Part shown: in pieces, positions 4,331 to 42,078 of the stretch | Position numbering within the stretch: position 1 is the stretch's first letter | Layout of the letters: each line of letters begins with the position of its first letter | Assembly (NCBI RefSeq): GCF_963921235.1 | Contig: NC_086108.1 | Coordinates: 65,412,001-65,476,000, forward strand | From: Mobula hypostoma | Taxonomy: Eukaryota | DNA length: 64,000 bases | Direction: 5' to 3' | The notes under the pieces: generated by a model | What the model was told of the DNA's origin: nothing | The model's input: the letters and a program-made list of their open reading frames with translations, nothing else | The model's database searches: none | Made by a program: the position numbers and the translations under genes

Positions 4331-4769
4331 AATTTAATTAGTCATGCAGACAACACTCCCTTTTTTTTTCTATAGCAAAGCGGTCCAGCCATTGCTCTGA
4401 ATAGGACATTTTTACATGGCCTGAAAGCTTTATATTAGCGTCATATAAAAGAAAGTTCCAACTGCACAAAAACAAAGGCAATGTGCATGGGAGCATTTTA
4501 CTGCATGTGCACGTGTACAGCTTTGAGGGAATAGTGCATACAGATTATACATAAACTTCACGCAGGTGGTTTTGTTATTAGAAATAGATACAGAAGCACT
4601 AGAAAACTCTGAAACATTAAGAAATGTAATAGTGCTATCAATCTCATGGGAATTTCTGGCTCATGACTACTCATATTGAAGAAAGAGCATTTACAGTAGC
4701 ATTGAGAACCTTCAATTCCTTCACCGAGCGTTTGCAGAAATCCAGCCTGGACAACAGAAAGAGCTTAAA

Positions 4770-7166: not shown

Positions 7167-8522
7167 CTTTCCACATCTACTCTGTTTAGGCCTTTCCACA
7201 TTTAAAAGTTTCAATGACATCCACCCTTGTCATCCTTCTAAATTCCAGTGAGTACAGACCCAGAGCCATCAATGTTCCTAGTATGATAACCCTTTCATTC
7301 TCAGAATCATCCTTGTGAACCTCCTCTGAACCATTTCCAATGTCAGCTTTTGAAATGTGGAGTGACATTTGCAAATTTCCAGTCCTCTGGCACCATGCCA
7401 GAGTCCAGTGATTTTTGAAAGATATTTACTAATGCCTCCATAGACTCTACTGCTACCTCTTTCAGAACCCTCGGGTACAGTTCATCTGGTCCGGGTGACT
7501 TAAGTACCCTTCTGTCTTTTAGCTTTTTAAGCACCTTCTCCCTTGAATAGTATCTGTACTCACTTCTCTTCCTTCATACCCTTCAACATGTGGCACACTA
7601 CTCGTGTCTTCCACAGTGAAGGTTGATACAAAATACTCATTTAATTCATCTGCTATCTCCTTGTCCCCTGCTATTATTTCCCTAGCCTCATTTTCTAGTG
7701 GTCCTATATCCACTTTCATCTCTCTTTTATATTTATATACTTGAAAAAGCTTTTGCAATCCACTTTGATATTGTTTGCTAGCTTGCTTTTATATTTCACC
7801 TTTTCCCTCCTAATGATTCTTTTAGTTATTCTCTGTAGGATTTTATAAGCTTCCCAATCTTCTGCCTTCGAGCTAACTTTTACTTTGTTGTATGCCCCCT
7901 TTTACTTTTTTGTTAGCTTTGGTTTCCCTTGTCAACCACAGTCGTACTCTCTTGCCATTTGAATATTTCTTCTTTTTTCGAATACATCTATCCTGCTTCC
8001 TCAGTTTTCTCAGAAACGCACACCATTGCTGCTTTGCTATCATCCCAGCCAGCATCTCCTTTCGATTTACTTCCACCAACTCCTCTCTCATACCAATGTA
8101 ATTTTATTTACTCCACTGAAATACTGTTACATTAGACTTTACTTTCTCCTTATCAAATTTCAAGTTGAACTCAATTAAATTGTGATCACTGCCTCCTAGG
8201 GGTTCTTTTACCTTAAGTTCCCTAATCACCTCTGGTTCATTACATAAAACCCAATCCAGTATAGCTGATCCCCTAGTAGAAACTGCTCTAAAAAGCCATC
8301 TTGTAGGCATTCCATAAACTGACTGTTTTGAGAACAATTACCAACCTGATTTTCCCAATCTACCTGAAAATTGAAATCTCCCATGACCGTCATAACACTG
8401 CCCTTTGACACGCCTTTTCTATTTCCTTTTTTCTATTTTAATGTTATATGTTGCTAATCAATGTCTCCATCCTTTTGTCCCTCTCTGATATTGTCTTCAG
8501 GCAAATGAATGGCTTTCATTTG

Positions 8523-9869: not shown

Positions 9870-11711
9870 ATAGAACATAGAAATTGACAGCGCATTACAG
9901 GCCCTTCGGCCCGCAATGTTGTGTCAACTATGTAACCTACCCTACAGACTGTCTAGAATTTCCCTAGTGCATAGCCCTCTATTTTCCTAAGCTCCATGTA
10001 CCTATTTAAGAGGCTCTTAAAAGACCCTATTGTATCCGCTTCCACCACCGCCGCTGGCAGTGCATTCCACACACCCACCACTCTGTGTGGGAAAACTTCG
10101 CACTGACATCCCTTTGGTACCTATTTCCAAGCACCTTAAAACTATGCCCCCTCATGTTAGCCATTTCATCCCTGGGAAAAAGCCTCTGGCTATCCACACG
10201 ATCAATGCCCCTAATCATCTTATACACCTCTATCAGGTCACCTCTCATCCTCCATCATTTCAAGGAGAAAAGTATACTCAACCTATTCTCATAAGGTATG
10301 CCCTCCAATCCAGGCAGCATCCTTGTAAATCTCCTCTGCACTCTCTCTATAGTATCCACATCCTTCCTGTAGTAAGGTGACCAGAACTGAACACAATACT
10401 CCAAATGGGGTCTAACTAAGGTCTTGTATAGCTGTAACATTACCTCACGGCTCTGGAACTCAATATCACGGTTGATGAATGCCAGCACACCATATACCTT
10501 CTTAACAACATTGTCAACCTGTGCAGCAGCTTTGAGTGTCCTATCGACATGGACCCCAAGATCTCTCAGATCCTCCACACTGCCAACAGTCTTACCATTT
10601 ATATTATATTCTGTCTTCAAATTGGACCTACCAAAATGAATCACTTCACACTTATCTGGGTTGAAGTCCATCTGCCACTTCTCAGCCCAATTCTGCATCC
10701 TATCGATGTCCCGCTGTAATCTCTGACAACTCTCCAGACCATGCACAACATTCCCAACCTTCGTGTCATCAGTAAATTTACTAACCCACCCTTCTACTTC
10801 TTCATCCAGGTCATTTATAAAAATCACGAAGAACAGGGTCCTAGAACGGATCCTTGAGGCACACCACTGGTCACTGACCTCCAAGCAGAATATGACCCGT
10901 CTACAATCACTCTTTGTACTCTGTGGGCAAGCCAATTCTGGATTCACAAAGCAAGGTCTTCTTGGATCCCATGCCCCTTTACTCTCTGAAGGAGCCTTGC
11001 ATGGGAAACTTTATCAAATGCCTTACTGAAATACATATACACTACACACATAAAAGTTGCTGGTGAACGCAGCAGGCCAGGCAGCATCTCTAGGAAGATC
11101 TCTAGAGATGCTGCCTGGCCTGCTGCGTTCACCAGCAACTTTTATGTGTGTTGCTTGAATTTCCAGCATCTGCAGAATTTCCTGTTGTTTGCGTACATAT
11201 ACACTACAACCACTGCTCAACCGTTATTAATGTGTTTTGTTACATGCTCAAAGAATTTAATCAGGCTCATAAGGCACGACCGCCCTTGACAAAGCCATGC
11301 TGACTATCCCTCATCAGATTATGTCTCTCCAAATGCTCATAAGTCCTGCCTGTCAGAATCTTCTGTAACAACTTGCCCACCAGTGATGTCACTGATCTAT
11401 AATTTCCTGAGTTATCTCTACTCCCTTTCTTGAACAAGGGAACAGCATTTGCAACCCTCCAATCCTCCAGTACTTCTGCCATCCCTATTGATGATGCAAA
11501 GATCATAGCAAGAGGCTCAGCAATCTCCTCCCTCAGCAGCCTGGTGTATATCTCATGCGGTCCTGGTCCTAACTTAATGCTTTTCAAAAGCTCCAGCACA
11601 TCCTCTTTCTTAATGTTTAAATGCTCAAGCATTTCAGTCCGCTGTAAGTCATCCCCACAATTGCCAAGGCCCTTTTCACTGGTGAATGCTGAAGCAAAGT
11701 ATTCATTAAGA
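9870..11711 (-). mobile_element. CR1 LINE RT fragment + 3'UTR
   Basis: FINDLDEEVEGWVSKFTDDTK, LYKTLVRPHLEYCVQFWSPYYRKD; (atagaac) tail. Confidence 0.92.
11047..11193. mobile_element. Palindromic PLE-end insertion, 15-bp TSD
   Basis: TSD tacatatacactaca at 11032-11046 and 11194-11208; 50-bp inverted arms 11044-11093 and 11102-11151. Confidence 0.85.
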
Positions 11712-12571
11712 ATAAAATGAGGGCACGTGACTAAAAGTTTGGTTAAAGTGGGTACATTTCAACGAGCATTTTAAAAGGAAGCAATGAAATCAGAGAAGCA
11801 AATTTAAGAAGAGCTTTGATTTCAGAGAGTTTCAGCTAATAGCGGAACAGTTAAATGAAGATAGCAAAATGGCCAGAATTGGCAAGAATTACCTTGGACA
11901 ACTGGAAAAGATTACTCTTGTTTTTCATCTTAAAAGCAAAGATGAAAATAATAATTGTAGGATATTGCTCTATCAGATGCAAATGTGGCTTTTAAACATG
12001 GGGATCAGAGTTTCTGCAAAGGGCAGAAAATGGGTGGCAGCTGGAAGCTGACTGCAAAAGTGAACTATCAGTAGTATGAAAGGCATGGATAAGGCTTTCA
12101 GTCATCAAGTTGCTAGAAGTGTTGGAGATAGTTGATGTAACAGGGCTTCAGACCAAATAACATTTCTTTAGCTACTGTTTTGAAATTTCAGCGGAAAGTT
12201 ATCTATGCTGAACATTATTAGAGGGAAAATGAGTCAGATTACTCACTTCCTAAATTTCTACGGAATCGTGAAACATTCTGTTCTATCTTCAATATTTTAT
12301 TCACTGTAAATATCTTTATGGAAACAAATTTGCTTGCATTTACTTTCTGTACAGTGATTCTCTTAAGCCCATTACAACAATAAACCCAGTATGCTAGAAT
12401 TAATAAAACATTAGCTCTGTGCGCTTGATTCTGGATCAATAGATTATCAATAGTCCATGGATCAATATTGGTAGCCTGTTTAAAATACAAAGAGTATACA
12501 TAATTTTGTGGAGACCCAGAGTGCACAGTGCTAAAGGTAGGCATAACTAGATGAAGATAAGTGAAGCATAG

Positions 12572-22795: not shown

Positions 22796-23050
22796 TCAAT
22801 GACCGTGTCCTGTAAGTGGGTTTAAAACAAAAGTTCTGGACCAGGTACCTAAATAAAAATTTCAGGTAATACATTCAGCCTCCTAAAGGGTTTAGTGAGC
22901 TACACCTCCACACAAGGCATTCAAAAATAGAAAATGCATTATGATATAGGAATTTATGCAAGTAGAACATCCAAATTAACTTTTTTAAATTCTGGATAAT
23001 AATTGTTTAAAACACCTTGGAGTAACCCTAATATTCACATTCTTTTTCAG

Positions 23051-23212
23051 GTGAATGGAAAGGAGTTGTATGGAAATTCATGCCGGGATGTAGTTTTATT
23101 TCTGAAAGACATGTCACCTCCATTTACTGTGGTCTGTTGTCGGCGACTGTTTGAAGAGGGAAATGAAATGCCTGTAGATGAATTCATTGCCATGGCAAAT
23201 GAAGCTTCTCAG
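23051..23212 (+). CDS. PATJ: PATJ exon, end of PDZ4
   Basis: tctttttcag|...TCTCAG|gtagag; 162 nt. [54 protein letters not shown] contains the PPFTxVCCRR motif. Confidence 0.93.
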
Positions 23213-24251
23213 GTAGAGTTTGGGGAGTTAAAACGGAAATATACTATATGTTTTGATCTATGGAATTACTCCATACTAATTCTTAGCAATTGGTTGAGAT
23301 ATTTGGGAGCTGAGTCAAAATTTTCCCTGGTCATGGTATCCATCGAGCCCATTCATTCATATGTACTCAAATGGTCATCTCAACTGATAAGTACTTTTTC
23401 TTCATGCAGTTATTCTTGAAGGCAGAGCCAATATATTTGCTGCATGAAAATAGAGTACTCCATAGCGATGAAAGTTTATTTTCTGTTGTAAAATAATTGA
23501 GAGCTGCACTAACTCTTTAGCTATCATTGTGTGTTGCTGTATTATTTATGTTATGAATGTATGAAAGGATATATCTATCACAACAACATAAGGAGTAAAT
23601 ATTTATGTTAAAAATATTTGAGAGTAGTTATGATGTCTTAAATGAATAATCCAACTTCACTTTTCTTTTTTAAAATGCAATTGGTGCCTTCTCTGCTTTG
23701 TTATATTCCCCATAAACCCCTTTAGACTCTGCCACATCTAAATTCTAGGGGATCAGCTATTCTGGATTGGGTGTTGTGCAATCAACCAGAATTGGTTGGA
23801 GAGCGTAAGGTGAAAGAAACCTTAGGGGAAATGATCGAATTCGCACTGAAATTTGAGAAGGAGAAGCTAAAGTCGGATCTATCAGTATTACAGTGGAGTA
23901 AAGGGAATTACAAAGGCATGAGGGAGGACTTGGCCAGGATTGATTACAAAAGAACAGCAATGTCTGGAATTTCGGAAGGCAGATGATATATACATCACAA
24001 GGAGGAAGAAGTATTCTAAGTTAAGATAACACAACTGTGGCTAACAAGAGAAGACAAAGCCAGCATAAAATCCAAAGAGAGTGCATATAATAGACCAAAA
24101 ATTAGTGGGAAGTTTGAGGATTGGGAAGCTGCTTAAAAACCAACAGAAGGCAACTAAAAATGTCATAAAGAGGGAAAAGATGGAATACTGAAGTAAGCTA
24201 ACCAATAAGGTTCGTCCATTGTCATCGATGAAGACCTCGACACCATTAGTA

Positions 24252-24388
24252 CTTTTTTACAAGGTTGAGTTGCTAGCTTGACGCTCAACCCAGCATGGAT
24301 GGAAAGCGTGCAAGGGAGCCAGCCAGATTCGAACTTGGGACCTCTCGTCCTGAAGTCCAGTACTGATGCCACCACGCCACCAGCCGGC
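24252..24388 (-). mobile_element. tRNA-derived SINE
   Basis: Minus strand GCCGGCTGGTGGCGTGGTGG (A box) ... GTTCGAATC (B box) ... gtAAAAAA tail. Confidence 0.8.
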
Positions 24389-24718
24389 TGGGTGATGATG
24401 TCAAGACTAGCGCTTGATTTGGATTTAAGTGAGGGAGAGTTGCGCAGCGTTAGCCTCACCCTTTCTTCCCAATTCCCATCTGGATCCAGTGGCAAAGCAA
24501 GAGTTGATACGGCTGGAGATGGGACTAGGCTCAGTGGATGAGCAGGATGACTTCTGTATCTTGTCGTGCTCTACACGTTCCATGATGCTTGCAGAGACTG
24601 CCTTCTTGACTGTTGGACCTTCCATCGGTCTCGTCCGCTCAATCCACCGGAGTCTGTCTTCACATGCTGGGATGGACATCTCCCTATCTCACCGAGGGTT
24701 TGAGACCCGTCAACTACC

Positions 24719-24901
24719 CTCACCTGGTTAAGCTGGCTTGTCGAAGCTGTTGCCCGGGGTGAGGCCGCTGTTGCATGCAAACAGCTACAAGGAGCCGCAG
24801 GTGAGAGCTGAGTGTCAGGTGGGAACCAAAGGTGGACTGACCGCCTTGAAAAGGACGCAACATGTTCTCCCACCAGAGGTGCTGCCCCTCCCTGACACCC
24901 C
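24719..24901 (-). ncRNA. Candidate HDV-like self-cleaving ribozyme
   Basis: P1 GGGGUG:CACCCC, P2 CUCACCUG:CAGGUGAG, P3 CGG:CCU (1 mismatch), P1.1 CC:GG, P4 GCUU-cgac-AAGC, J4/2 GCUUAA; begins at the element's 5' end. Confidence 0.5.
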
Positions 24902-26661
24902 ATACACCCCTAGCTAACCAATAATATTAAAGAGGATACAGAAAGTTTCTTCAGATACATAAAGTGTAAAAGAGAGGCAATATTGGGGGATATCGGACCA
25001 CTGGAAAACTATACTGGAGAGGTAGTAATGGGAACAAGGAAATAGTGGATGAACTGAATAAGTACTTTGCATTAGTCTTCACTGTGGAAGACACTAGCAG
25101 TATGTGGGAAGTTCCAGGCGTCAGTGGTCAAGAAGTGTGTGAAGTTACCATAACTAGTGTAAGGTCCTTAGAAAACTGAAAGGTCTGAAGGTAGATAAGT
25201 CACATGGACCAGATGGTGTACACCCCAGAGTACAGAAGGAGGTGGCTGAATACGTTGTGAAGGCATTAGTAATAATCTTACAAGGATCACTAGATTCTGG
25301 AATAGTTCCAGAAGACTGGAAAATTGCAAATATCACTCTTCTCTTCAAGAAGGGAGAGGGACAGAAGAAAGGAAATTATAGGCCAGTTAGTCTGACCTCA
25401 GTGGTTGGGAAGTTGTTAGAGTCCATTATTAAGGATGAGGCTTCGTGTACTTGGAGACACATGATACAGTAGGCTATAGCCAGCATGGTTTCCTCAAGGG
25501 AAAATCTTGCTGACAAATCTCTTGGAATTCTTTGAAGAAATAACAAGCAGGATAGACAACATCAACTGATTCTCTTTTGTAAACTTGGATTTTCAGAAGG
25601 CCTTTGACAAGGTGCCACACATGAGGCTGCTTAACAAGCTATGAGCCCATGATATTACAAGGAAGATCTGGCATGGATAAAGCAGTGGCTGATTGGCAGG
25701 AGGCAAAGAGTGGGAATAAAGGGAGCCTTTTCTGGTTGGCTGCCAGTGACTAGTGGTGTTCCACAGGGGTCTGTGTTGGAACTGACTCTTTTTACATGTT
25801 GTATCAATGATTTGGGTGATGGAATTGATGGCGTTGTTGTAAAGTTTGTAGGCAATACAAAGATAGGTGATGGGGCAGGTAGTTTTTAGGAAGTAAAGGG
25901 GCTACAGGATTTAGACGGATTAGGAGAATAGACAAAGAAGTGGTAGATGGAATACAGTGTTGGGAAATGTATTGTCATGCATTTTGGGAGGAGAAATGAA
26001 AGGGTTTTCTATTTTCTAAATGGAAAGAAAATGCAAAAATCTGAGTCGCAAAGAGACTTGGGAGTCCTTATGCAGGATTCCCTAAAGGTTAAATTGCAGA
26101 TTGAGTTTGTGGTGAGGAAGGCAATTGCGATTTTAGCATTCATTTGAAGAGGACTAGAATATAAAAGCAAGGATGTAATGTTGAGACTGGTGAGGCCTTA
26201 ATTGAAATATTGTGAGCAGTTTTGGGCTCCTTGCTGAAACTGGAGAGATTTCAAAGCTGGTTCACGAAATTCCTCCTCATCCCTATCCAGGATTGAACAG
26301 CTTGGTCAGACGAAGTGTGTTTGATGGCTCTGGGCCTGTATTCACTAGAATTCAGAAGAATGAGGGATGACCTCATAGAAAACTATTGAATGGTGAAAGG
26401 CCTTGATAGAGTGGATGTGGAGAGGATATTTCCTATGGTGGGAGAGTCTCACACCAGAGGACACAGCCTCAGAGTAGAGGGGCGTCCTTCGAGAACAGAT
26501 ATGAGGAGGAATTGCTTTAGTTAAAGAATGGGGAATCTGTGGAATTTGTTGCCATGGGCAGCTATGGAGGCCAAGTCTTTGTGCTCAGTATATTTACGGC
26601 AGAGGTTGATAGATTCTTGATTGGTCAGGGCGTGAAAGGACACGCGGAGAAGGCAGGAAAA

Positions 26662-32888: not shown

Positions 32889-35800
32889 AACATAGAACAT
32901 AGAATAGTACAGCACAGTACAGGCCCTTTGGCCCACAATGTTGTGCCGACCCTCAAACCCTGCCTCCCATATAAGCCCCCACCTTAGATTCCTCCATATA
33001 CCTGTCTAGTAGTCTCTTAAACTTCATTAGTGTATCTGCCTCCACCACTGACTCAGGCAGTGCATTCCACGCACCAACCACTCTCTGAGTAAAAAACCTT
33101 CCTCTAATATCCCCCTTGAACTTCCCACCCCTTACCTTGAAGCCATGTTCTCTTGTATTGAGCAGTGGTGCCCTGGGGAAGAGGCGCTGGCTATCCACTC
33201 TATCTATTCCTCTTATTATCTTGTACACCTCTGTCATGTCTCCTCTCATCCTCCTTCTCTCCAAAGAGTAAAGCCCTAGCTCCCTTAATCTCTGATCATA
33301 ATGCATACTTTCTAAACCAGGCAGCATCCTGGTAAATCTCCCCTGTACCCTTTCCAATGCTTCCACATCCTTCCTATAGTGAGGTGACCAGAACTGGACA
33401 CAATACTCCAAGTGTGGCCTAACCAGAGTTTTATAGAGCTGCATCATTACATCGCGACTCTTAAACTCTATCCCTCGACTTATGAAAGCTAACACCCCAT
33501 AAGCTTTCTTAACTACCCTATCCACCTGTGAGGCAACTTTCAGGGATCTGTGGACATGTACTCCGAGATCCCTCTGCTCCTCCACACTACCAAGTATCCT
33601 GCCATTTACTTTGTACTCTGCCTTGGAGTTTGTCCTTCCAAAGTGTACCACCTCACACTTCTCCGGGTTGAACTCCATCTGCCACTTCTCAGCCCACTTC
33701 TGCATCCTATCAATGTCTCTCTGCAATCTTTGACAATCCTCTACACTATCTACAACACCACCAACCTTTGTGTCGTCTGCAAACTTGCCAACTCATCCTT
33801 CTACCCCAACATCCAGGTCGTTAATAAAAATCATGAAAAGTAGAGGTCCCAGAACTGATCCTTGTGGGACACCACTAGTCACAATCCTCCAATCTGAATG
33901 TACTCCCTCCACCACCACCCTCTGCCTTCTGCAGGCAAGCCAATTCTGAATCCACCTGGCCAAAGTTCCCTGGATCCCATGTCTTCTAACTTTCTGAATA
34001 ATCTACCGTGTGGAACCTTGTCAAATGCCTTACTAAAATCTATATAGATCACATCCACTGCACTACCCTCATCTATATGGCTGGTCACCTCCTCAAAGAA
34101 CTCTTATCAGGCTTGTTAGACACGATCTGCCCTTCACAAAGCCATGCTGACTGTCCCTGATCAGACCATGATTCTCTAAATGCCTATAGATCCTATCTCT
34201 AAGAATCTTTTCCAACAACTTTCCCACCACAGACGTAAGGCTCACTGGTCTATAATTACCCGGACTATCCCTACTACCTTTTTTGAACAAGGGAACAACA
34301 TTCGCCTCCTTCCAATCCTCCGGTACCATTCCCGTGGACAACGAGGACATAAAGATCCTAGCCAGAGGCTCAGCAATCTCTTCTCTCGCCTCGTGGAGCA
34401 GCCTGGGGAATATTCCATCTGGCCCCGGGGACTTATCCGTCCTAATGTATTTTAACAACTCCAACACCTCCTCTCCCTTAATATCAGCATGCTCCAGAAC
34501 ATCAACCTCACTCATATTGTCCTCACCATCATCAAGTTCCCTCTCATTGGTGAGTACCGAAGAGAAGTATTCATTGAGGACCTCGCTCACTTCCACAGCC
34601 TCCAGGCACATCTTCCCACCTTTATCTCTAATTGGTCCTACGTTCACTCCTGTCATCCTTTTTTTCTTCACATAATTGAAGAATGCCTTGGGGTTTTCCT
34701 TTACCCTACTCGCCAAGGCCTTCTCATGCCCCCTTCTTGCTCTTCTCAGCCCCTTCTTAAGCTCCTTTCTTGCTTCCCTATATTCCTCAATAGACCCATC
34801 TGATCCTTGCTTCCTAAACCTCATGTATGCTGCTTTCTTCCTCCTGACTAGATTTTCCACCTCACTTGTCACCCATGGTTCCTTCACCCTACCATTCTTT
34901 ATCTTCCTCACCAGGACAAATTATCCCTTACATCCCGCAAGAGATCTCTAAACATCGACCACATGTCCATAGTACATTTCCCTGCAAAACCATCATCCCA
35001 ATTCACACCCGCAAGATCTAGCCTTATAGCCTCATAATTTGCCTTTCCCCAGTTAAAAATTTTCCTGTCCTGTTTGATTCTATCCTTTTCCATGATAATT
35101 ATAAAGGCCAGGGAGCGGTGGTCACTGTCCCCCAGATGCTCACCCACTGAGAGATCTGTGACCTGACCCGGTTAATTACCTAGTACTAGATCTAGCATGG
35201 CATTCCCCCTGGTCGGCCTGTCCACATACTGTGACAGGAATGCATCCTGGACACACTTAACAAATTCTGCCCCATCTAAACCCTTGGAACTAATCAGGTT
35301 CCAATCAATATTAGGGAAGTTAAAGTCACCCATGATAACAACTCTGTTATTTTTTGCACCTTTCCAAAATCTGCCTCCCAATCTGCTCCTCTGTAACTCT
35401 GCTGCTACCAGGGGGCCTATAGAATACCCCCAGTAGAGTAACTGCTCCCTTCCTGTTCCTGACTTCCAGCCATATTGACTCAAAAGAGGATCCTGCTACA
35501 TTACCCACCCTTTCTGTAGCTGTAATAGTATCCCTGACCAGTAATGCCACCCCTCCTCCCCTTTTTCCGCCCTCTCTATCCCTTTTAAAGCACTGAAATC
35601 CAGGAATATTGAGAATCCATTCCTGTCCTGGTGCCAGCCAAGTCTCTGTAATGGCCACTACATCATAATTCCATGTATGTATCCAAGCTCTCAGTTCATC
35701 ACCTTTGTTCCTGATGCTTCTTGCATTGAGGTACACACATTTCAGCCCTTCTACCTTACTGTCTTTACACCAGTTATTCTGCTTCTCTTTCCTCAAAGCC

Positions 35801-36294
35801 TCTCTGAATGTTAGATCTGGCTTTACTCCATGCACTTCTTTCACTGTTCTATCGCTCTGGGCCCCAGCCCCCTTGCAAATTAGTTTAAACCCTCCCGAAC
35901 CATGCTAGCAAACCTACCTGCAAGGATATTGCTCCTCCTCGAGTTCAGGTGCAACCCATCCAATCTGTACAGGTCCCACCTTCCCCAGAAGAGATCCCAA
36001 TGATCTAAAAATCTAAAACCCTGCTCCCCGCACCAACTCCTCAGCCACGCATTCAACTGCCATCTCCTCCAATTCTTTCCATCTCTGTCACGTAGCACTG
36101 GCAGCAACCCTGAGAACGTCACCCTTGAGGTCCTGTTCTTCAGCCTTCTGCCTAATTCCTGAAACTCACACTTCAGGACCTCATCCCTCTTCCTGCTTAT
36201 GTCGTTGGTCCCAACATATATCACTACTTCTGGTTGCTTTCCCTCTTGTACCAGGATGTCGTGCACCCGGTCAGAGACATCCCGGACCCTGGCA
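32889..36294 (-). mobile_element. Young, near-intact 5'-truncated CR1 (partial ORF1 esterase + complete ORF2 with ~4 frameshifts and 1 stop)
   Basis: ORF track segments 35880-36266 (VGTND esterase), 35347-35844 (YLNARS/AITETWL APE), 34093-34911, 33879-34088 and 32953-33726 (RT to C-terminus); (catagaa) tail. Confidence 0.95.
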
Positions 36295-38378
36295 AAGGAA
36301 AGGTGAGAGTGGAAAATTACTCTGGAGAGGTAGTAATGGCGAACAAAGAAATAGCAGATGAACTGGAGAAGTATTTTGCATCAGTCTTCACTGTGAAAGA
36401 CATTATCAGTATACCAGAAATTCAAGAGTGTCAGAGGAGAAAAGTGAGTGTGGTTGCTTTTACAAGGAGAAGATGTTTGGGAAACTGAAAGGTCTGAAGG
36501 TAGACAAATCAATAGAACAGATAGAGTACACCATAATGTTCTGAAAGAGGTAGCTGAAAAGATTGTGAAGGCAGCAGTAATCACTAGATTCTGGAATAGT
36601 TCTGAAGGACTGGAAAATTGCAGGATGTCACTCCATGCTTTAAGATGTGAGGGAGAATTCAATGGCTGGGAAGATGGAGTCCATTATTAAGGATAAGGTT
36701 TTGGGGTGGTTGGAGGTGAATGACAAAGTAGGCCAAAGTCATCATGGTTTCCTTAAGGGGAAATCTTGCCTGACAAATCTGTTGGGATTCTTTGAGGAAA
36801 CAACAGGCAGTATAGACAATGGAGAATTAGTGGATGTTGTTAACTTGGATTTTCCGAAGTCCATTGACAAGGTGCTGCACATGGGGCTGTTAACAGGAAT
36901 GGGTATTACAGGAAAAATACTAGGATGGGTAGAGCATTGGCTGTCTGGCAGGAGGCAAAGAGTTTGGAATAAAGGGGGCCTCCTCTTTTTGGCTGCTGGT
37001 GACTAGTGGTGTTCCGCCAGGGTCGGCATTGGGACTGTGCCTTTTCATGTTATATGTCAACAATGTAGATAATGGAATTCATGGCTTTGTGGCCAGGTTT
37101 GCAGATGGTACAAAGATAGGTGGATGGGCAGGTAGTGCTGAGAAAGCAGGAGGACTGCAGAAGGACTTGGAATAGATTGGATAAATGGGCAGAGGAGTGG
37201 CAGATGGAATATAGTGTAGGGAAGTGGATGGTCATGGACATTGGTAGAATGAATAAAGGTGTAGACTATTTTCCAAATGGGAAGAAATTGAAAAATCAGA
37301 GGTGTAAAGGGATTTGGGAGTGCTTCTGCAAGATTCCCTAAAGGTTAACTGCAGGTTGAGTCAGTGGTAAGAAAGTCAAATGTAATGTTAGCATTCATTT
37401 TGGCAGGACTGGACTATAAGAAAAAAGGATGTGATGTTGAGGCTTTATAAAGCATTAGTCAGACGACTCTTGGAGTATAGTGAGGAGTTTTGGGCCCCTT
37501 GTCAAAGAAAAGATAGGTTGGCGGAGCAGGTTGACAAGAATGATTCTGGGAATGAAAGAGTTAATGTATGAGGAACGTTTGATGGCTTTGGGCCTGGAAT
37601 CACTGGAGTATAGAAAAATGAGGTGGGGGGAAATCTCATTGTGACCTGTTGAATATTGCAGTCTTTGATAGAGTGTATGTGGAGAGGATGTTTCCTGTAA
37701 TGGGTGAGTCTAGGACCAGAGGGCACATCTTCAGCATGGAGGGACCTCTATTTAGAACAGAGGTGAGAGGGAATATCTTTAGCCAGATGTTATGAGGAAG
37801 CAGTTCATTGGTTTGGTAAGTGAGACAGAAGACATTGATTGCAAATAAGCACTTAAATTATTTATTTACAAAGAGTAAAATATTTAACCAAACATCTAAG
37901 TCCCTTCAAGTTACACAACTACAAAATTAAAATTGTGTGGGCACTTGGGGATGAAAGAAAAGAGACCAGGCCTCTCGCATGTGCTATCTTTATACTCCTG
38001 ATGTGCCTGAAACTGGACATTGGTGCCATGGCACACAAGATAGCCAATGGGAAAGAGCTGCTTGTTCAAACAGGCCAGTTGATAACCGGCACAGTAGAAG
38101 CAGCTTTTGAACAACAAGTAAACTAACCTCCCACGTGACACCAGAGGCTGGTGAATCTGTGGAATTCATTGCCACAAGTGACTGGAGGCCAAGTCATTAA
38201 ATGTATGTATGGGAGAGGTTGATTGGTTCTTGGTTAGTCAGGGCTTCAAGGGTCACGGTGAGAAGGCAGGAAAATAGGATTGAGAGGGATAATAAGTCAG
38301 CCATGATGGAATGGTAGAGCAGAATTGATGGGCTGAGTGGTCTAATTCTGCTCCTGAGTCTTATGGCTTTATGGTCTA
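36295..38378 (+). mobile_element. CR1 3' half (continuation of 30440-32888)
   Basis: HGFLKGKSCLTNLL, GVPPG, FADGTK; 3'UTR ends ttatggtct. Confidence 0.88.
37788..38140 (-). mobile_element. Solo LTR (353 bp) with 5-bp TSD
   Basis: CCAGA|TGT...ACA|CCAGA; TATAAA and AATAAA in the expected order on the minus strand; host CR1 resumes cleanly. Confidence 0.8.
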
Positions 38379-39613: not shown

Positions 39614-40705
39614 CAATGTAATCTGGTTAATTGGGCCATCGGTTAATTGGGGCACCTGATTATTTGGGATAACTCTTAAAGAACAAAATCCAATCAAAAA
39701 AAAACCTGGATTTCCTTTGTTTATTTGGGGCACGATGCCGCTTAATTGTGACAGAGAACTGATGCCGAACAGTCTCTAACTGACGTCAGTGAATCAGAAT
39801 CAGAATCAGGTTTATTATCAACGGCATGTGACATGAAATTTGTTAACTTAGCAGCAGCAGTTCAACGGAATACATAATCTAGCAGAGAGAAAATTAAAAA
39901 TAAATAAAATAATAATAAATAAACAAGTAAATCAATTACATATATTGAATAGATTTAAAAAACATGCAAAAACAGAAATGCTGTATATTTAAAAAAAAAA
40001 GTGAAGTAGTGTCTAAAGATTCAACGTCCATTGAGGAATTGGATGGCAGAGGGGAAGAAGCTGTTCCTGAATAACTGAGTGTGTGCCTTCAAGTGAGTGC
40101 ACTTGTGTGGCTGTTAGACACTACACCATGCTTTGACAGTTTTTTAAATAGTGTCATTTATGTTTGTGTTCCAAATGCAGTGGATTTTTGTCACTGATAG
40201 TAAGACAATTCAGGACTGCTCACTGTGGTTTCAAGCATTCAGGCTTCGAGATGCCTTAAATGGCCGAGAGCAAAAAGAAAAGATTTCACTACTTCAACAA
40301 GTTAGGAGCTACATAGAAGTTGAAGGTAATGACAGTCATCTGGAATGCTACAATGAAAATGAAGATTTGGAGGATAAAAGCATTGTATGAAGACAGTATG
40401 AAGATATTTTCACTAGGTCACAGCACTGATTTTGTTCATTTGCAGTCACTCAAAAAAACAGCAGCATACACTGGATGAATTCTTCTGACAATAACTATAG
40501 GAACTAATAGACAATTTTATAGTACTGTACTGGTATTGATAGTATTCTACTTTGTTCTGTATTTCATCTAAATACATAATTTGTTACTAAGTTAAATGGT
40601 AATTTGTTTTTTTAAATACCTTTTTAACTATTTCCATGAAACTTCAGTTATTTGCGGCAGCTGCTTAATTGATCATGATGTGTCTCAATTAACTGGAATC
40701 CACTG
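39614..40705. mobile_element. Tigger/pogo-like non-autonomous DNA transposon
   Basis: TA-caatgtaatctggttaattggg ... ctcaattaactggaatccactg imperfect ~22-bp TIRs. Confidence 0.55.
39792..40092 (-). mobile_element. Rex1/Babar 3' end nested in the DNA transposon
   Basis: (aatcag)n tail; gatggcagaggggaagaagctgttcctgaa matches the end of 8880-9672. Confidence 0.75.
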
Positions 40706-40736
40706 AGTATTGTTGGTTTAGATATGAATGTAGTTT

Positions 40737-42078
40737 TATATTCACTTTGCCTCCAACTTCCACCCTGCCCTCAAATTTACCTGGTCCATTTCTGACACTT
40801 CCTTTCCCTTTCTCGACCTCACTGTCTCTATCTCCAGAGTTGGCTTATCCACTGATGTCTATTATAAACCAGCGAACTTTCACAGCTACCTGGACTGTAT
40901 CTCGTCCCACCTTGCTACTTGTAAAAATGCCATCCCCTTCTCTCAATTCCTCCATCTCCACGGCATCTGCTCTCAGGATAAGGCTTTTCGTTCTAGAGCG
41001 AAGGAGATGTCTTCCTTTTTCAAAGAAAGGGGCTTCCCTTCCTTCACCATCAACGCTGCTCTCAACTGCATCTCTTCCATTTCATGCACGTTTGCTCTTA
41101 CCTCATCCTCCTGCCATGTTATCAGGGATAGGGTTCTTCTTGCCCTCAGCTACCACTCCACCAGCCTCCGCATCCAACGCATAATTCTCCGAAACTTCTG
41201 TCACCTCCAACTGGATCCCACCACCAAACACGTCTTTCTCTCCCCTCATTTTCTCCTTTCTGCAAGGACCTCTCCCTACGTGACTCCCTTGTCCGTTTGC
41301 CCTCCCCACTGATCTCCCTCCTGGCACTTATCCTTGCAAGCGGAACATGTGCTACACCTGCCCCTTCTCCCTCGCTACCATTCAGGGCCCCAAACAGTCC
41401 GTCCAAGTGAGGCAATATTTCACCTGTCAGGCTGTTGGAGTCATATACTGTGTTTGGTGCTCCTGGTGTGACCTCTTGCATATTGGTGAGACCCGAAGTA
41501 GATTGGGAGACGGCTTCACCGAGCATCTACGCTCCGTTCGCCAGATCAAGTGGGATCTCCCAGTGGCCGTCCATTTTAATTCCACTTCCCATTCGCATTC
41601 TGACGTATCAGTCCACGGCCTCCTCCACTGTTGGAATAAGGCCACACTTAAGTTGGAGGAGCAACACCTTGTATTCCATTTGGGTATCCAACCTGATAAC
41701 ATGAACATGGATTTCTCAAACTTCTAGTAATGCCCCCCCCTTTCCATTTCCCATCCCCTTGTCCATCTCTCATGTTATCTCCTTGCCTGTCCATTGTCTC
41801 CCTCTGCTGCTCCTCCTCTACCCCCCCCCGCCATATCTTTCTTCCATGGCCTTCTGTCTCTTTCACCTGTCAGCTTCCCAGCTCTTTGCTTCATCCCTCC
41901 CCCTCCAAGTTTCACCTATCGCCTGGCATTTGTCTGTCCCCTCTCCCCACCTTTCAAATCTACTCCTCAGCTTTTTGTTCCACCAGTCCTGCCGAAAGGT
42001 TTCGGCCTGAAACATTGATATTCTTTTTCATAGATGTTGCCTGGCCTGCTGAGTTCCTCCAGCATTTTGTGTGTGTTT
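40737..42078 (+). mobile_element. Penelope-like element (Neptune-type): RT C-terminus + Cys linker + GIY-YIG endonuclease + pLTR end
   Basis: FHPALKFTWSISDTSLPFLD, MSSFFKERGFP, CYTCP..FTC..VIYCVWCSWCDLLHIGETRSRL..EHL; degenerate hammerhead CUGcCGA...GAAAC at 41989-42016. Confidence 0.9.

Follow-up and report, generated by a model that had tools for sequence, protein, structure and literature searches.

Does the short repeat on the minus strand of the window, by which we mean the whole 64,000-nt stretch of Mobula hypostoma DNA analysed here, begin with an HDV-like ribozyme, and does that ribozyme carry a hairpin inside its L3 loop? A preliminary description, made from the letters of the stretch, had proposed both. 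In the accessible text of the literature, HDV-like ribozymes are placed at the head of R2, R4, RTE, L1Tc/ingi and baggins elements (Ruminski 2011, as cited in PMC6765202 and PMC5786205; Eickbush 2013, PMC3774820).

The element and its insertion site

The strings quoted in the preliminary description all lie where it had placed them, and the 13-bp TSD that it reported is exact (Table 1). The insertion sits in an old LINE, which from its protein motifs we take to be of CR1 type; empty sites are present in the CR1 copies L083, L265 and L315 and at 7360-8276 of the window, where the two flanks share 13 nt. The element was rightly described as lacking an ORF. Its proposed length of ~570 nt is that of plain copies of its family, called A below (~560-575 nt, ending in (AAC)n and flanked in many copies by TSDs of ~7-13 bp), and not that of the window copy, at 703 nt. 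The latter differs from the family A majority at 5.9% of non-CpG sites and is 89% identical to the autonomous parent L322 over element positions 1-521. ARAGORN found no tRNA gene in the stretch of its SINE head.

An exon-like stretch at ~23045-23200 (plus strand) resembles a multiple-PDZ protein chain (E 0.002), with no Pfam match there. As the element is antisense to it, the insertion probably lies within an intron and would not be read on the strand of the host gene. Elsewhere in the window, long broken LINE frames and a fragment of another kind lie at 32953-36380 (minus), 10255-11758 (minus) and 40693-41727 (plus); a reverse transcriptase (RT) is confirmed at 34093-34917. From their motifs we take these to be CR1-like LINEs and a Penelope-like fragment.

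Table 1 Features of the element in the window, with positions counted from the first letter of the window
Feature	Position	Strand	Basis or remark
TSD, 5' side of the element	24912..24924	.	exact 13-nt direct repeat
TSD, 3' side of the element	24196..24208	.	exact 13-nt match to 24912-24924
Whole element, 703 nt	24209..24911	-	parent 5' UTR, tRNA-type SINE head, parent-type 3' tail
HDV-like ribozyme fold, predicted cleavage 5' of G1 (24910)	24717..24910	-	sequence, descriptor, covariation
P1, 5' strand (first GGGGUGU)	24904..24910	-	copy starts; constrained folding
J1/2, long	24808..24903	-	closed by the 10-bp P1.2 stem (24900-24891 : 24819-24810)
P2, 5' strand	24797..24807	-	family top U is C here, pair next to P3 lost
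P3, 5' strand GGC	24794..24796	-	partner GCC 24765-24763
L3, 28 nt	24766..24793	-	U20, C21, C22, G25, then insert
Extra L3 hairpin, 6-bp stem, 7-nt loop (predicted)	24767..24785	-	in A and its parent, in B, and in C (5 bp); not in R
P1, 3' strand (family ACACCCC, UCACCCC here; pair 7 broken)	24756..24762	-
P1.1	C21-C22 : GG 24755-24754	-
J1.1/4 (GCAA) and P4	24734..24753	-	family P4 6 bp, of which this copy has lost two
J4/2	24729..24733	-	candidate catalytic C 24732; A77 to U here (24730)
P2, 3' strand, one bulged C	24717..24728	-
Remainder of parent 5' UTR, ending in the parent (CAT)n repeat	24390..24716	-	match to parent L322
tRNA-type SINE head and short body, between UTR and tail	24253..24388	-	related free SINE copies L073, L013, L014
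A-box-like and B-box-like motifs	24379-24369; 24334-24326	-	simple pattern
3' tail, resembling the parent 3' end	24209..24252	-	88% to L322 positions 4332-4381
Old CR1-type LINE hosting the insertion (element antisense to it)	24925..25500, resumes 23700-24195	+	RT-like match 25185-25430, empty sites

A deleted family and its autonomous parent

Family A yields 3910 first-look candidates in the 3.48-Gb genome when queried with the 5' 226 nt, and the 40 candidates scored are 90-93% identical. Exact matches to a 32-nt pattern from the tail number 405, and its reversed control has 0. A degenerate endonuclease motif (69 matches) led to L319 and L322. The latter is a 4.07-kb copy with an 11-bp TSD, APE and RT domains (PF03372 and PF00078, on broken frames), a stop codon adjoining the tail, and the tail of family A. 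It matches family A positions 2-518 at 93%, then continues into (CAT)n, further UTR and the broken APE and RT frames. Such a layout, one ORF with apurinic endonuclease and RT followed by a short 3' UTR, is that of RTE elements, and the parent appears to be of this type; it is 28% similar (E 3e-51) to an ORF of the same genome bearing DUF6451, which we take to be an RTE marker.

The parent is itself a repeat. A stretch found only in the parent gives 572 first-look candidates, with family-A sequence upstream in 29 of 30 loci; the L3 insert is covered in 23 of the 30, and the parent majority differs from that of A at 4 of 518 positions. Since the parent shares both its 5' UTR and its tail with family A, the sequences identify this family as a form of the parent that has lost its interior, the two ends meeting inside the (CAT)n repeat. 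The ribozyme-headed short deleted element that the preliminary description had supposed thus has its source: both ends match and the ORF is deleted. An 11-bp hairpin lies at the junction, its arms derived from the two ends of the parent; when 388 windows of L322 were ranked by how well they pair with the tail, the junction arm fell outside the top 6, and it is not energetically exceptional there. Altogether, family A has the properties of a bipartite non-autonomous LINE (SIDE), with ends matching an autonomous element, dispersed copies, TSDs and a simple-repeat tail.

Other searches for a partner gave nothing. Among 30 DUF6451 loci and 20 longer regions, 0 shared the tail or the 5' end, and the HDV descriptor found no fold in the 20 longer regions; the sample of 30 loci taken by the tail pattern held 0 autonomous copies. 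One locus, L061 (G000:C36 ~131.599-131.602 Mb, minus strand), has an uninterrupted 1018-aa APE-RT frame with DUF6451, and its UTR end carries a motif resembling the body of the SINE in the window copy. The 3' part of the family presumably resembles marsupial MAR1. In the assembled contigs of sequencing runs, which by their nature are unable to show an RNA start, the sequence occurs in several organisms, including 2 contigs of 151 nt in a freshwater metatranscriptome.

Position of G1 and the 5' ends of the copies

The 5' end contains two GGGGUGU repeats, each able to pair with ACACCCC, and the preliminary description had taken the second (24901-24896) as the 5' strand of P1. Its 3' strand, CACCCC, stands, while its 5' strand moves to the first repeat. 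The second GGGGUGU is one arm of P1.2, and forcing it into P1 costs ~11 kcal/mol for both the family majority and the window copy; the first would form P1 because the second is sequestered in the J1/2 stem. P1 is consequently 7 bp in the family, and 6 bp plus a U-U mismatch in the window copy, where 6 bp had been given.

The starts of the copies agree. When 30 copies were selected on the 3' tail alone, 17 were seen to begin at positions 1-4, 3 at positions 5-10, 2 at positions 11-15 and 8 further in, and 0 of the 30 share a common upstream sequence. From these starts and the folding cost of the second repeat, G1 is 24910, in the first GGGGTGT. The copies do therefore start at G1, the check proposed at the outset, once G1 has been moved. 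In the window copy a single additional base (24911) separates G1 from the TSD, instead of the 10 nt first described. In two samples the base preceding G1 is usually T or A (23 of 24 and 11 of 13), as would be expected if it were added without a template.

Cleavage at the second repeat (24901), the first being an upstream duplication, would account for the equal pairing of both repeats with ACACCCC, for the 2 of 30 copies that begin at positions 11-15 and for a third repeat in a few copies (L004, L361). We consider it very improbable as the main site, though some minor cutting there is conceivable: it would break P1.2, at the cost just given, and would strip the first repeat from each new copy, yet 17 of 30 have it, and the two related families B and C and the parent retain both. 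A start at G1 = 24910 is also mirrored in family R, a further autonomous family, where 33 of 40 matches begin within query positions 20-25 (G1 = 21); the rule that the element begins at G1 is thus seen twice, in A and R, with different P1 letters. As a side observation, L004, L361 and L237 carry an additional tandem copy of their own first 9-20 nt at the 5' end.

A nested double pseudoknot at family level

In aligned copies, the fold of family A has P1 GGGGUGU:ACACCCC, an 11-bp P2 with a bulged C, P3 GGC:GCC, L3 reading UCC..G, P1.1 CC:GG, J1.1/4 GCAA, a 6-bp P4 and J4/2 GCUAA. At family level the five helices P1, P1.1, P2, P3 and P4 follow the nested double-pseudoknot order. The core residues G1, U20, C21, C22, G25, G38-G39, C75 and A78, chosen after the HDV descriptor in the accessible text of PMC6326823, are present in the family. 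In the alignment of A, B and R, U20, C21, C22 and G25 are invariant and positions 23-24 vary. The candidate catalytic C is conserved in 78 of the 80 A-type copies and in all 24 copies of the parent, and A77 in 78 of 80 A-type copies; the J4/2 rule C-N-R-A holds for the family CUAA (78 of 80), and the window copy, with CUUA, departs from it. P1.2 has a pair probability of 0.93-0.98 in the family majority, and its pairs are maintained in families A, B and C.

Several elements drawn from the window copy alone had to be redrawn. P1.1, between a CC and the GG downstream of CACCCC, was correct, as was the long self-pairing J1/2, which P1.2 closes. P3 was not CGG:CCU with a mismatch, but a perfect GGC:GCC. 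P2 had been placed rightly and drawn too short. P4 had been given 4 bp, which is what two G>A changes have left here of the six. The candidate catalytic C of J4/2 stands; its context, read as GCUUAA, is GCUAA in the family and GCUUA in the window copy, through a private change of A77.

The window copy has five core lesions (P1 pair 7, the P2 top pair, two P4 pairs and A77), that is, four broken pairs across P1, P2 and P4. Judged by these changes it is likely slow or dead as a ribozyme. The core is fully intact in 6 of 15 copies selected by their tail, in 4 of 15 chimeras and in 2 of 13 copies of the parent; so few are expected of decaying repeats, and the intact ones are not proof of past activity.

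A strict HDV descriptor, which the family majority and 25 of 30 loci pass, gave 0 matches on both strands of 30 dinucleotide-shuffled windows. A looser one, which the window copy passes, gave 3 matches in 30 shuffles against 2 in the real window, the second at +18446 being at this chance rate. Taken over the family, the HDV-like fold is genuine and not a product of chance. Rfam had no match at gathering level over the window; on the window copy it returned chance miRNA and scaRNA matches alone, with no ribozyme, and the family does not reach the gathering thresholds of the HDV, CPEB3 and HDV-F-prausnitzii models.

Related families and covariation

Families B (123 matches to one motif) and C (918 candidates) are 75-80% like A, ~500-540 nt long and have tails of their own; one C locus runs on into an endonuclease frame. 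Across 22 complete ribozymes, from A (7), its parent (2), B (2), C (10) and the window copy, 96.4% of 980 cells pair, against 39-51% when the partner strand is slid; A, B and C are related, so these cells are not independent events. In P4, 3 of 6 pairs changed on both sides among A, B and C. Doubly changed pairs (4) are no more numerous than shuffling would give, since 141 of 500 shuffles reach that count, while the paired cells and the score do exceed the shuffles (0 of 500).

Family R (L214-L243), autonomous and RTE-type, has a canonical HDV-like fold in its first 290 nt, with a 209-nt J1/2. Its GUGUGUG start pairs 7 of 7 with its own CACACAC, P3 is GCC:GGC, L3 has 7 nt and J4/2 is GCUAA, unchanged. 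Between R and A, 5 of 7 P1 pairs and 1 of 3 P3 pairs (the middle one, C-G in R) differ on both sides. R was tabulated separately (29 of 30 loci, L230 being excluded as rearranged) and its pairs were not counted on the joint alignment, where R is off by one column past the gap. Rfam found no ribozyme in family R, with chance miRNA and scaRNA matches only. The covariation asked for at the outset is accordingly present in P1 and P3 (A against R) and in P4 (A, B and C), and none is found in P1.1 or the L3 stem. Positions that vary are the known free ones: L3 23-24, J1.1/4 and position 76, the last given as free (G76) in the accessible text of PMC6326823. The core pattern had 0 matches in metagenome contigs and 0 in viral contigs, and therefore no distant homologues were available for covariation.

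R was considered and rejected as the parent of A: it has a related UTR motif and tail, yet no blastn match. A second autonomous relative, family Q (L274-L313), shares UTR positions 234-506 at 71-78%. The ribozyme fold is absent from Q, whose 5' region is GC-rich and exists in several alternative versions, possibly a captured promoter in place of the ribozyme. In another RTE-type family (L315, L320, L321), a stretch like P2-P3-L3, with a CPEB3-like loop, lies upstream of an endonuclease motif; the 3' strand of P1 seems, by eye, to be missing in the three copies.

The hairpin in L3

HDV-like ribozymes tolerate large inserts in J1/2 and P4, and L3 supplies active-site residues. In family A the insert in L3 is discrete: the 21 nt after G25 are UA and the 19-nt hairpin, and against R they form one clean gap of ~20 columns. 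U20, C21, C22 and G25 keep their spacing because the hairpin follows G25, at the 3' side of L3. L3 measures 28 nt in A and B, 26 nt in C and 7 nt in R, while HDV and CPEB3 have 7-8 nt (accessible text of bioRxiv 10.1101/2022.09.22.508989), the typical length from which A, B and C depart. The additional hairpin of the preliminary description is thus borne out as an insert of three related lineages, the fourth (R) having the canonical loop.

Selection on the stem is harder to judge. All 30 family C loci contain a 17-nt version of the insert, four pairs being retained in 26 and five in 24; one base is missing from each arm, and the loop is still 7 nt, having changed from UGCAUGC to AACAYGC. From the sequences, this balanced loss of a pair together with a changed loop is the best evidence for a selected stem. 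Between A and B, 1 of 20 insert positions differs, against 46 of 253 in the background, which weakly indicates conservation above background; other J1/2 stretches are equally conserved. A palindrome in the loop, GCAUGC, was weighed as a kissing site by analogy with the L3 dimers of CPEB3 (accessible text of bioRxiv 10.1101/2022.09.22.508989) and is not favoured, being lost in family C.

It is somewhat unlikely, though a serious alternative, that the ribozyme is active and the insert a neutral or mildly harmful hitchhiker, kept by descent or as another structure such as an extended P3. None of the 6 stem pairs changed on both sides, the outer four being invariant and hence uninformative on pairing. 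In a pseudoknot-free ensemble the hairpin has a probability of 0.31-0.45 and P3 of 0.36, an alternative P3-L3 fold reaching -9.3 kcal/mol; and R has the same core without the insert. Set against this are the persistence of the insert in three lineages ~20-25% apart and the way family C dropped one base per arm and changed its loop at constant loop length. On the whole we lean towards a hairpin that forms in the active fold.

We think it improbable that the insert silenced catalysis, leaving the pseudoknot as a stable 5' cap or protein-binding structure, and that an internal promoter, or an exonuclease that stalls at the fold, fixes the 5' end. Such an outcome would agree with the ribozyme-less, GC-rich 5' region of Q and, in the accessible text of published work, with an argument that the fold rather than necessarily its activity protects template RNA (PMC11331408) and with findings that changes in L3, which builds the active site, reduced the activity of R2 ribozymes (PMC3414825, PMC3774820). 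Yet C75, A78, U20, G25 and P1.1 are constant in A, B, C and R while adjacent free positions drift, as selection on catalysis would lead one to expect.

We give an even chance to the full reading, in which the HDV-like ribozyme of a vertebrate RTE sub-lineage is active and bears in its catalytic loop L3 a stem-loop under selection. If so, L3 would be a new peripheral-domain position for the HDV-like class, missed by any descriptor that limits L3 to 7-8 nt, and thousands of copies in three families, together with autonomous parents, would carry such a ribozyme. A lineage-wide hairpin would offer a new engineering site, and descriptor searches would undercount ribozymes of this kind in vertebrate genomes. 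The set of families, with the hairpin in A, B and C, a canonical loop in R and no ribozyme in Q, makes the L3 question directly testable, R being a natural control.

Chimeric copies with an internal SINE head

The window copy belongs to a class in which the family-A 5' UTR is followed by a tRNA-type SINE head and a variant tail (L141-L170, L026, L013, L246-L267 and window 24209-24390, minus strand). The junction pattern has 311 matches; family A lies upstream in 29 of 30 loci and 1 of 30 begins at the SINE head. The heads are of two types (22 and 7 of 30, with 1 left unassigned), and the junctions between UTR and SINE show, by eye, more than 10 different strings. Where TSDs were found, in the window, L026, L246, L262 and L266, a single one encloses the whole chimera. 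Of 30 copies in which the base following the arm departs from the majority, chimeras account for 7 and plain loop variants for the other 23.

Our best guess from these sequences is recurrent template switching at the (CAT)n arm, from a SINE RNA to the UTR; alternatively, a small number of master copies may have undergone slippage. The class could be a source of new SINEs. The window copy is not itself a SINE, as defined by a small-RNA head at the 5' end: its 5' end is a LINE UTR and the tRNA-type head is internal.

Proposed mechanism

We hold with good confidence that the locus is a decayed copy of a two-ended RTE-type element, whose HDV-like ribozyme, with a predicted L3 hairpin, would in intact copies cut immediately 5' of G1 (24910). 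What the sequences show directly is their pattern, the parent, copies that begin at G1 and the compensation; the other steps are carried over from work on HDV and R2. The element would be read through from a host promoter, and the nested double pseudoknot would form with the first GGGGUGU as P1. C75 would act as general acid, as in the biochemistry of HDV and R2, freeing the RNA from upstream sequence and leaving a compact 5'-OH end. The protein of the parent would then recognise the common 3' tail and insert a copy beginning at G1. The L3 hairpin would most likely be a peripheral stem that is tolerated and under selection, pointing outward from the active site.

Comparison with known systems

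Like the HDV-like ribozymes of retrotransposons, the fold predicted here has a nested double pseudoknot, the core residues, a long structured J1/2 and an element 5' end at G1. It differs in its 28-nt L3 with a stem-loop, in its doubled P1 5' strand and in its vertebrate-type host. The closest Rfam model is RF02682, HDV-F-prausnitzii, the sole match on copy L007 (partial, E 3.9). The letters of J1.1/4, the P4 base and J4/2 are alike, GGCAACGG...CCGGCUAA; the score is 13.2 bits against a 44-bit cut-off and the model omits the long J1/2 and the L3 insert, so that we claim no membership.

Bipartite non-autonomous LINEs include RTESINE1/2, WALLSI3 and Bov-A (Kojima 2018, PMC5786205), the SIDEs of R2 (PMC3414825) and RIME, NARTc and SIDER (PMC4035085), and for SIDEs and NARTco the accessible text reports assayed ribozymes. 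Family A resembles them in having only the 5' and 3' ends of its parent, with no ORF, a TSD and the extreme 5' end of the parent kept. It differs in that A, B and C have the ribozyme with the L3 hairpin in common, and different tails. Compared with the SINE order of Kojima, the chimeric subset of A is reversed, its tRNA-type head lying downstream of the ribozyme.

As far as their accessible text goes, PMC6765202, PMC5786205, PMC3774820, PMC3414825, PMC6326823, PMC9901934, PMC4035085, PMC11331408 and bioRxiv 10.1101/2022.09.22.508989 show that RTE elements have ribozymes at their 5' ends, that non-autonomous RTEs of bipartite structure exist and that SIDE ribozymes have been assayed. In the same portions of text we found no hairpin in the L3 of an HDV-like ribozyme, the nearest remark concerning altered L3 spacing in the jewel-wasp R2 (PMC3774820); one may already be drawn in Ruminski 2011, Webb 2009 or Webb and Luptak 2011, or in figures and supplements. 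The families also bear on a suggestion by Kojima, in the accessible text of PMC5786205, that bipartite RTE elements keep their 5' ends because of the ribozyme, and provide a test of it. Altogether, ribozyme-headed bipartite elements are already known and the class of this element is ordinary; the L3 hairpin specific to its lineage is the variant feature.
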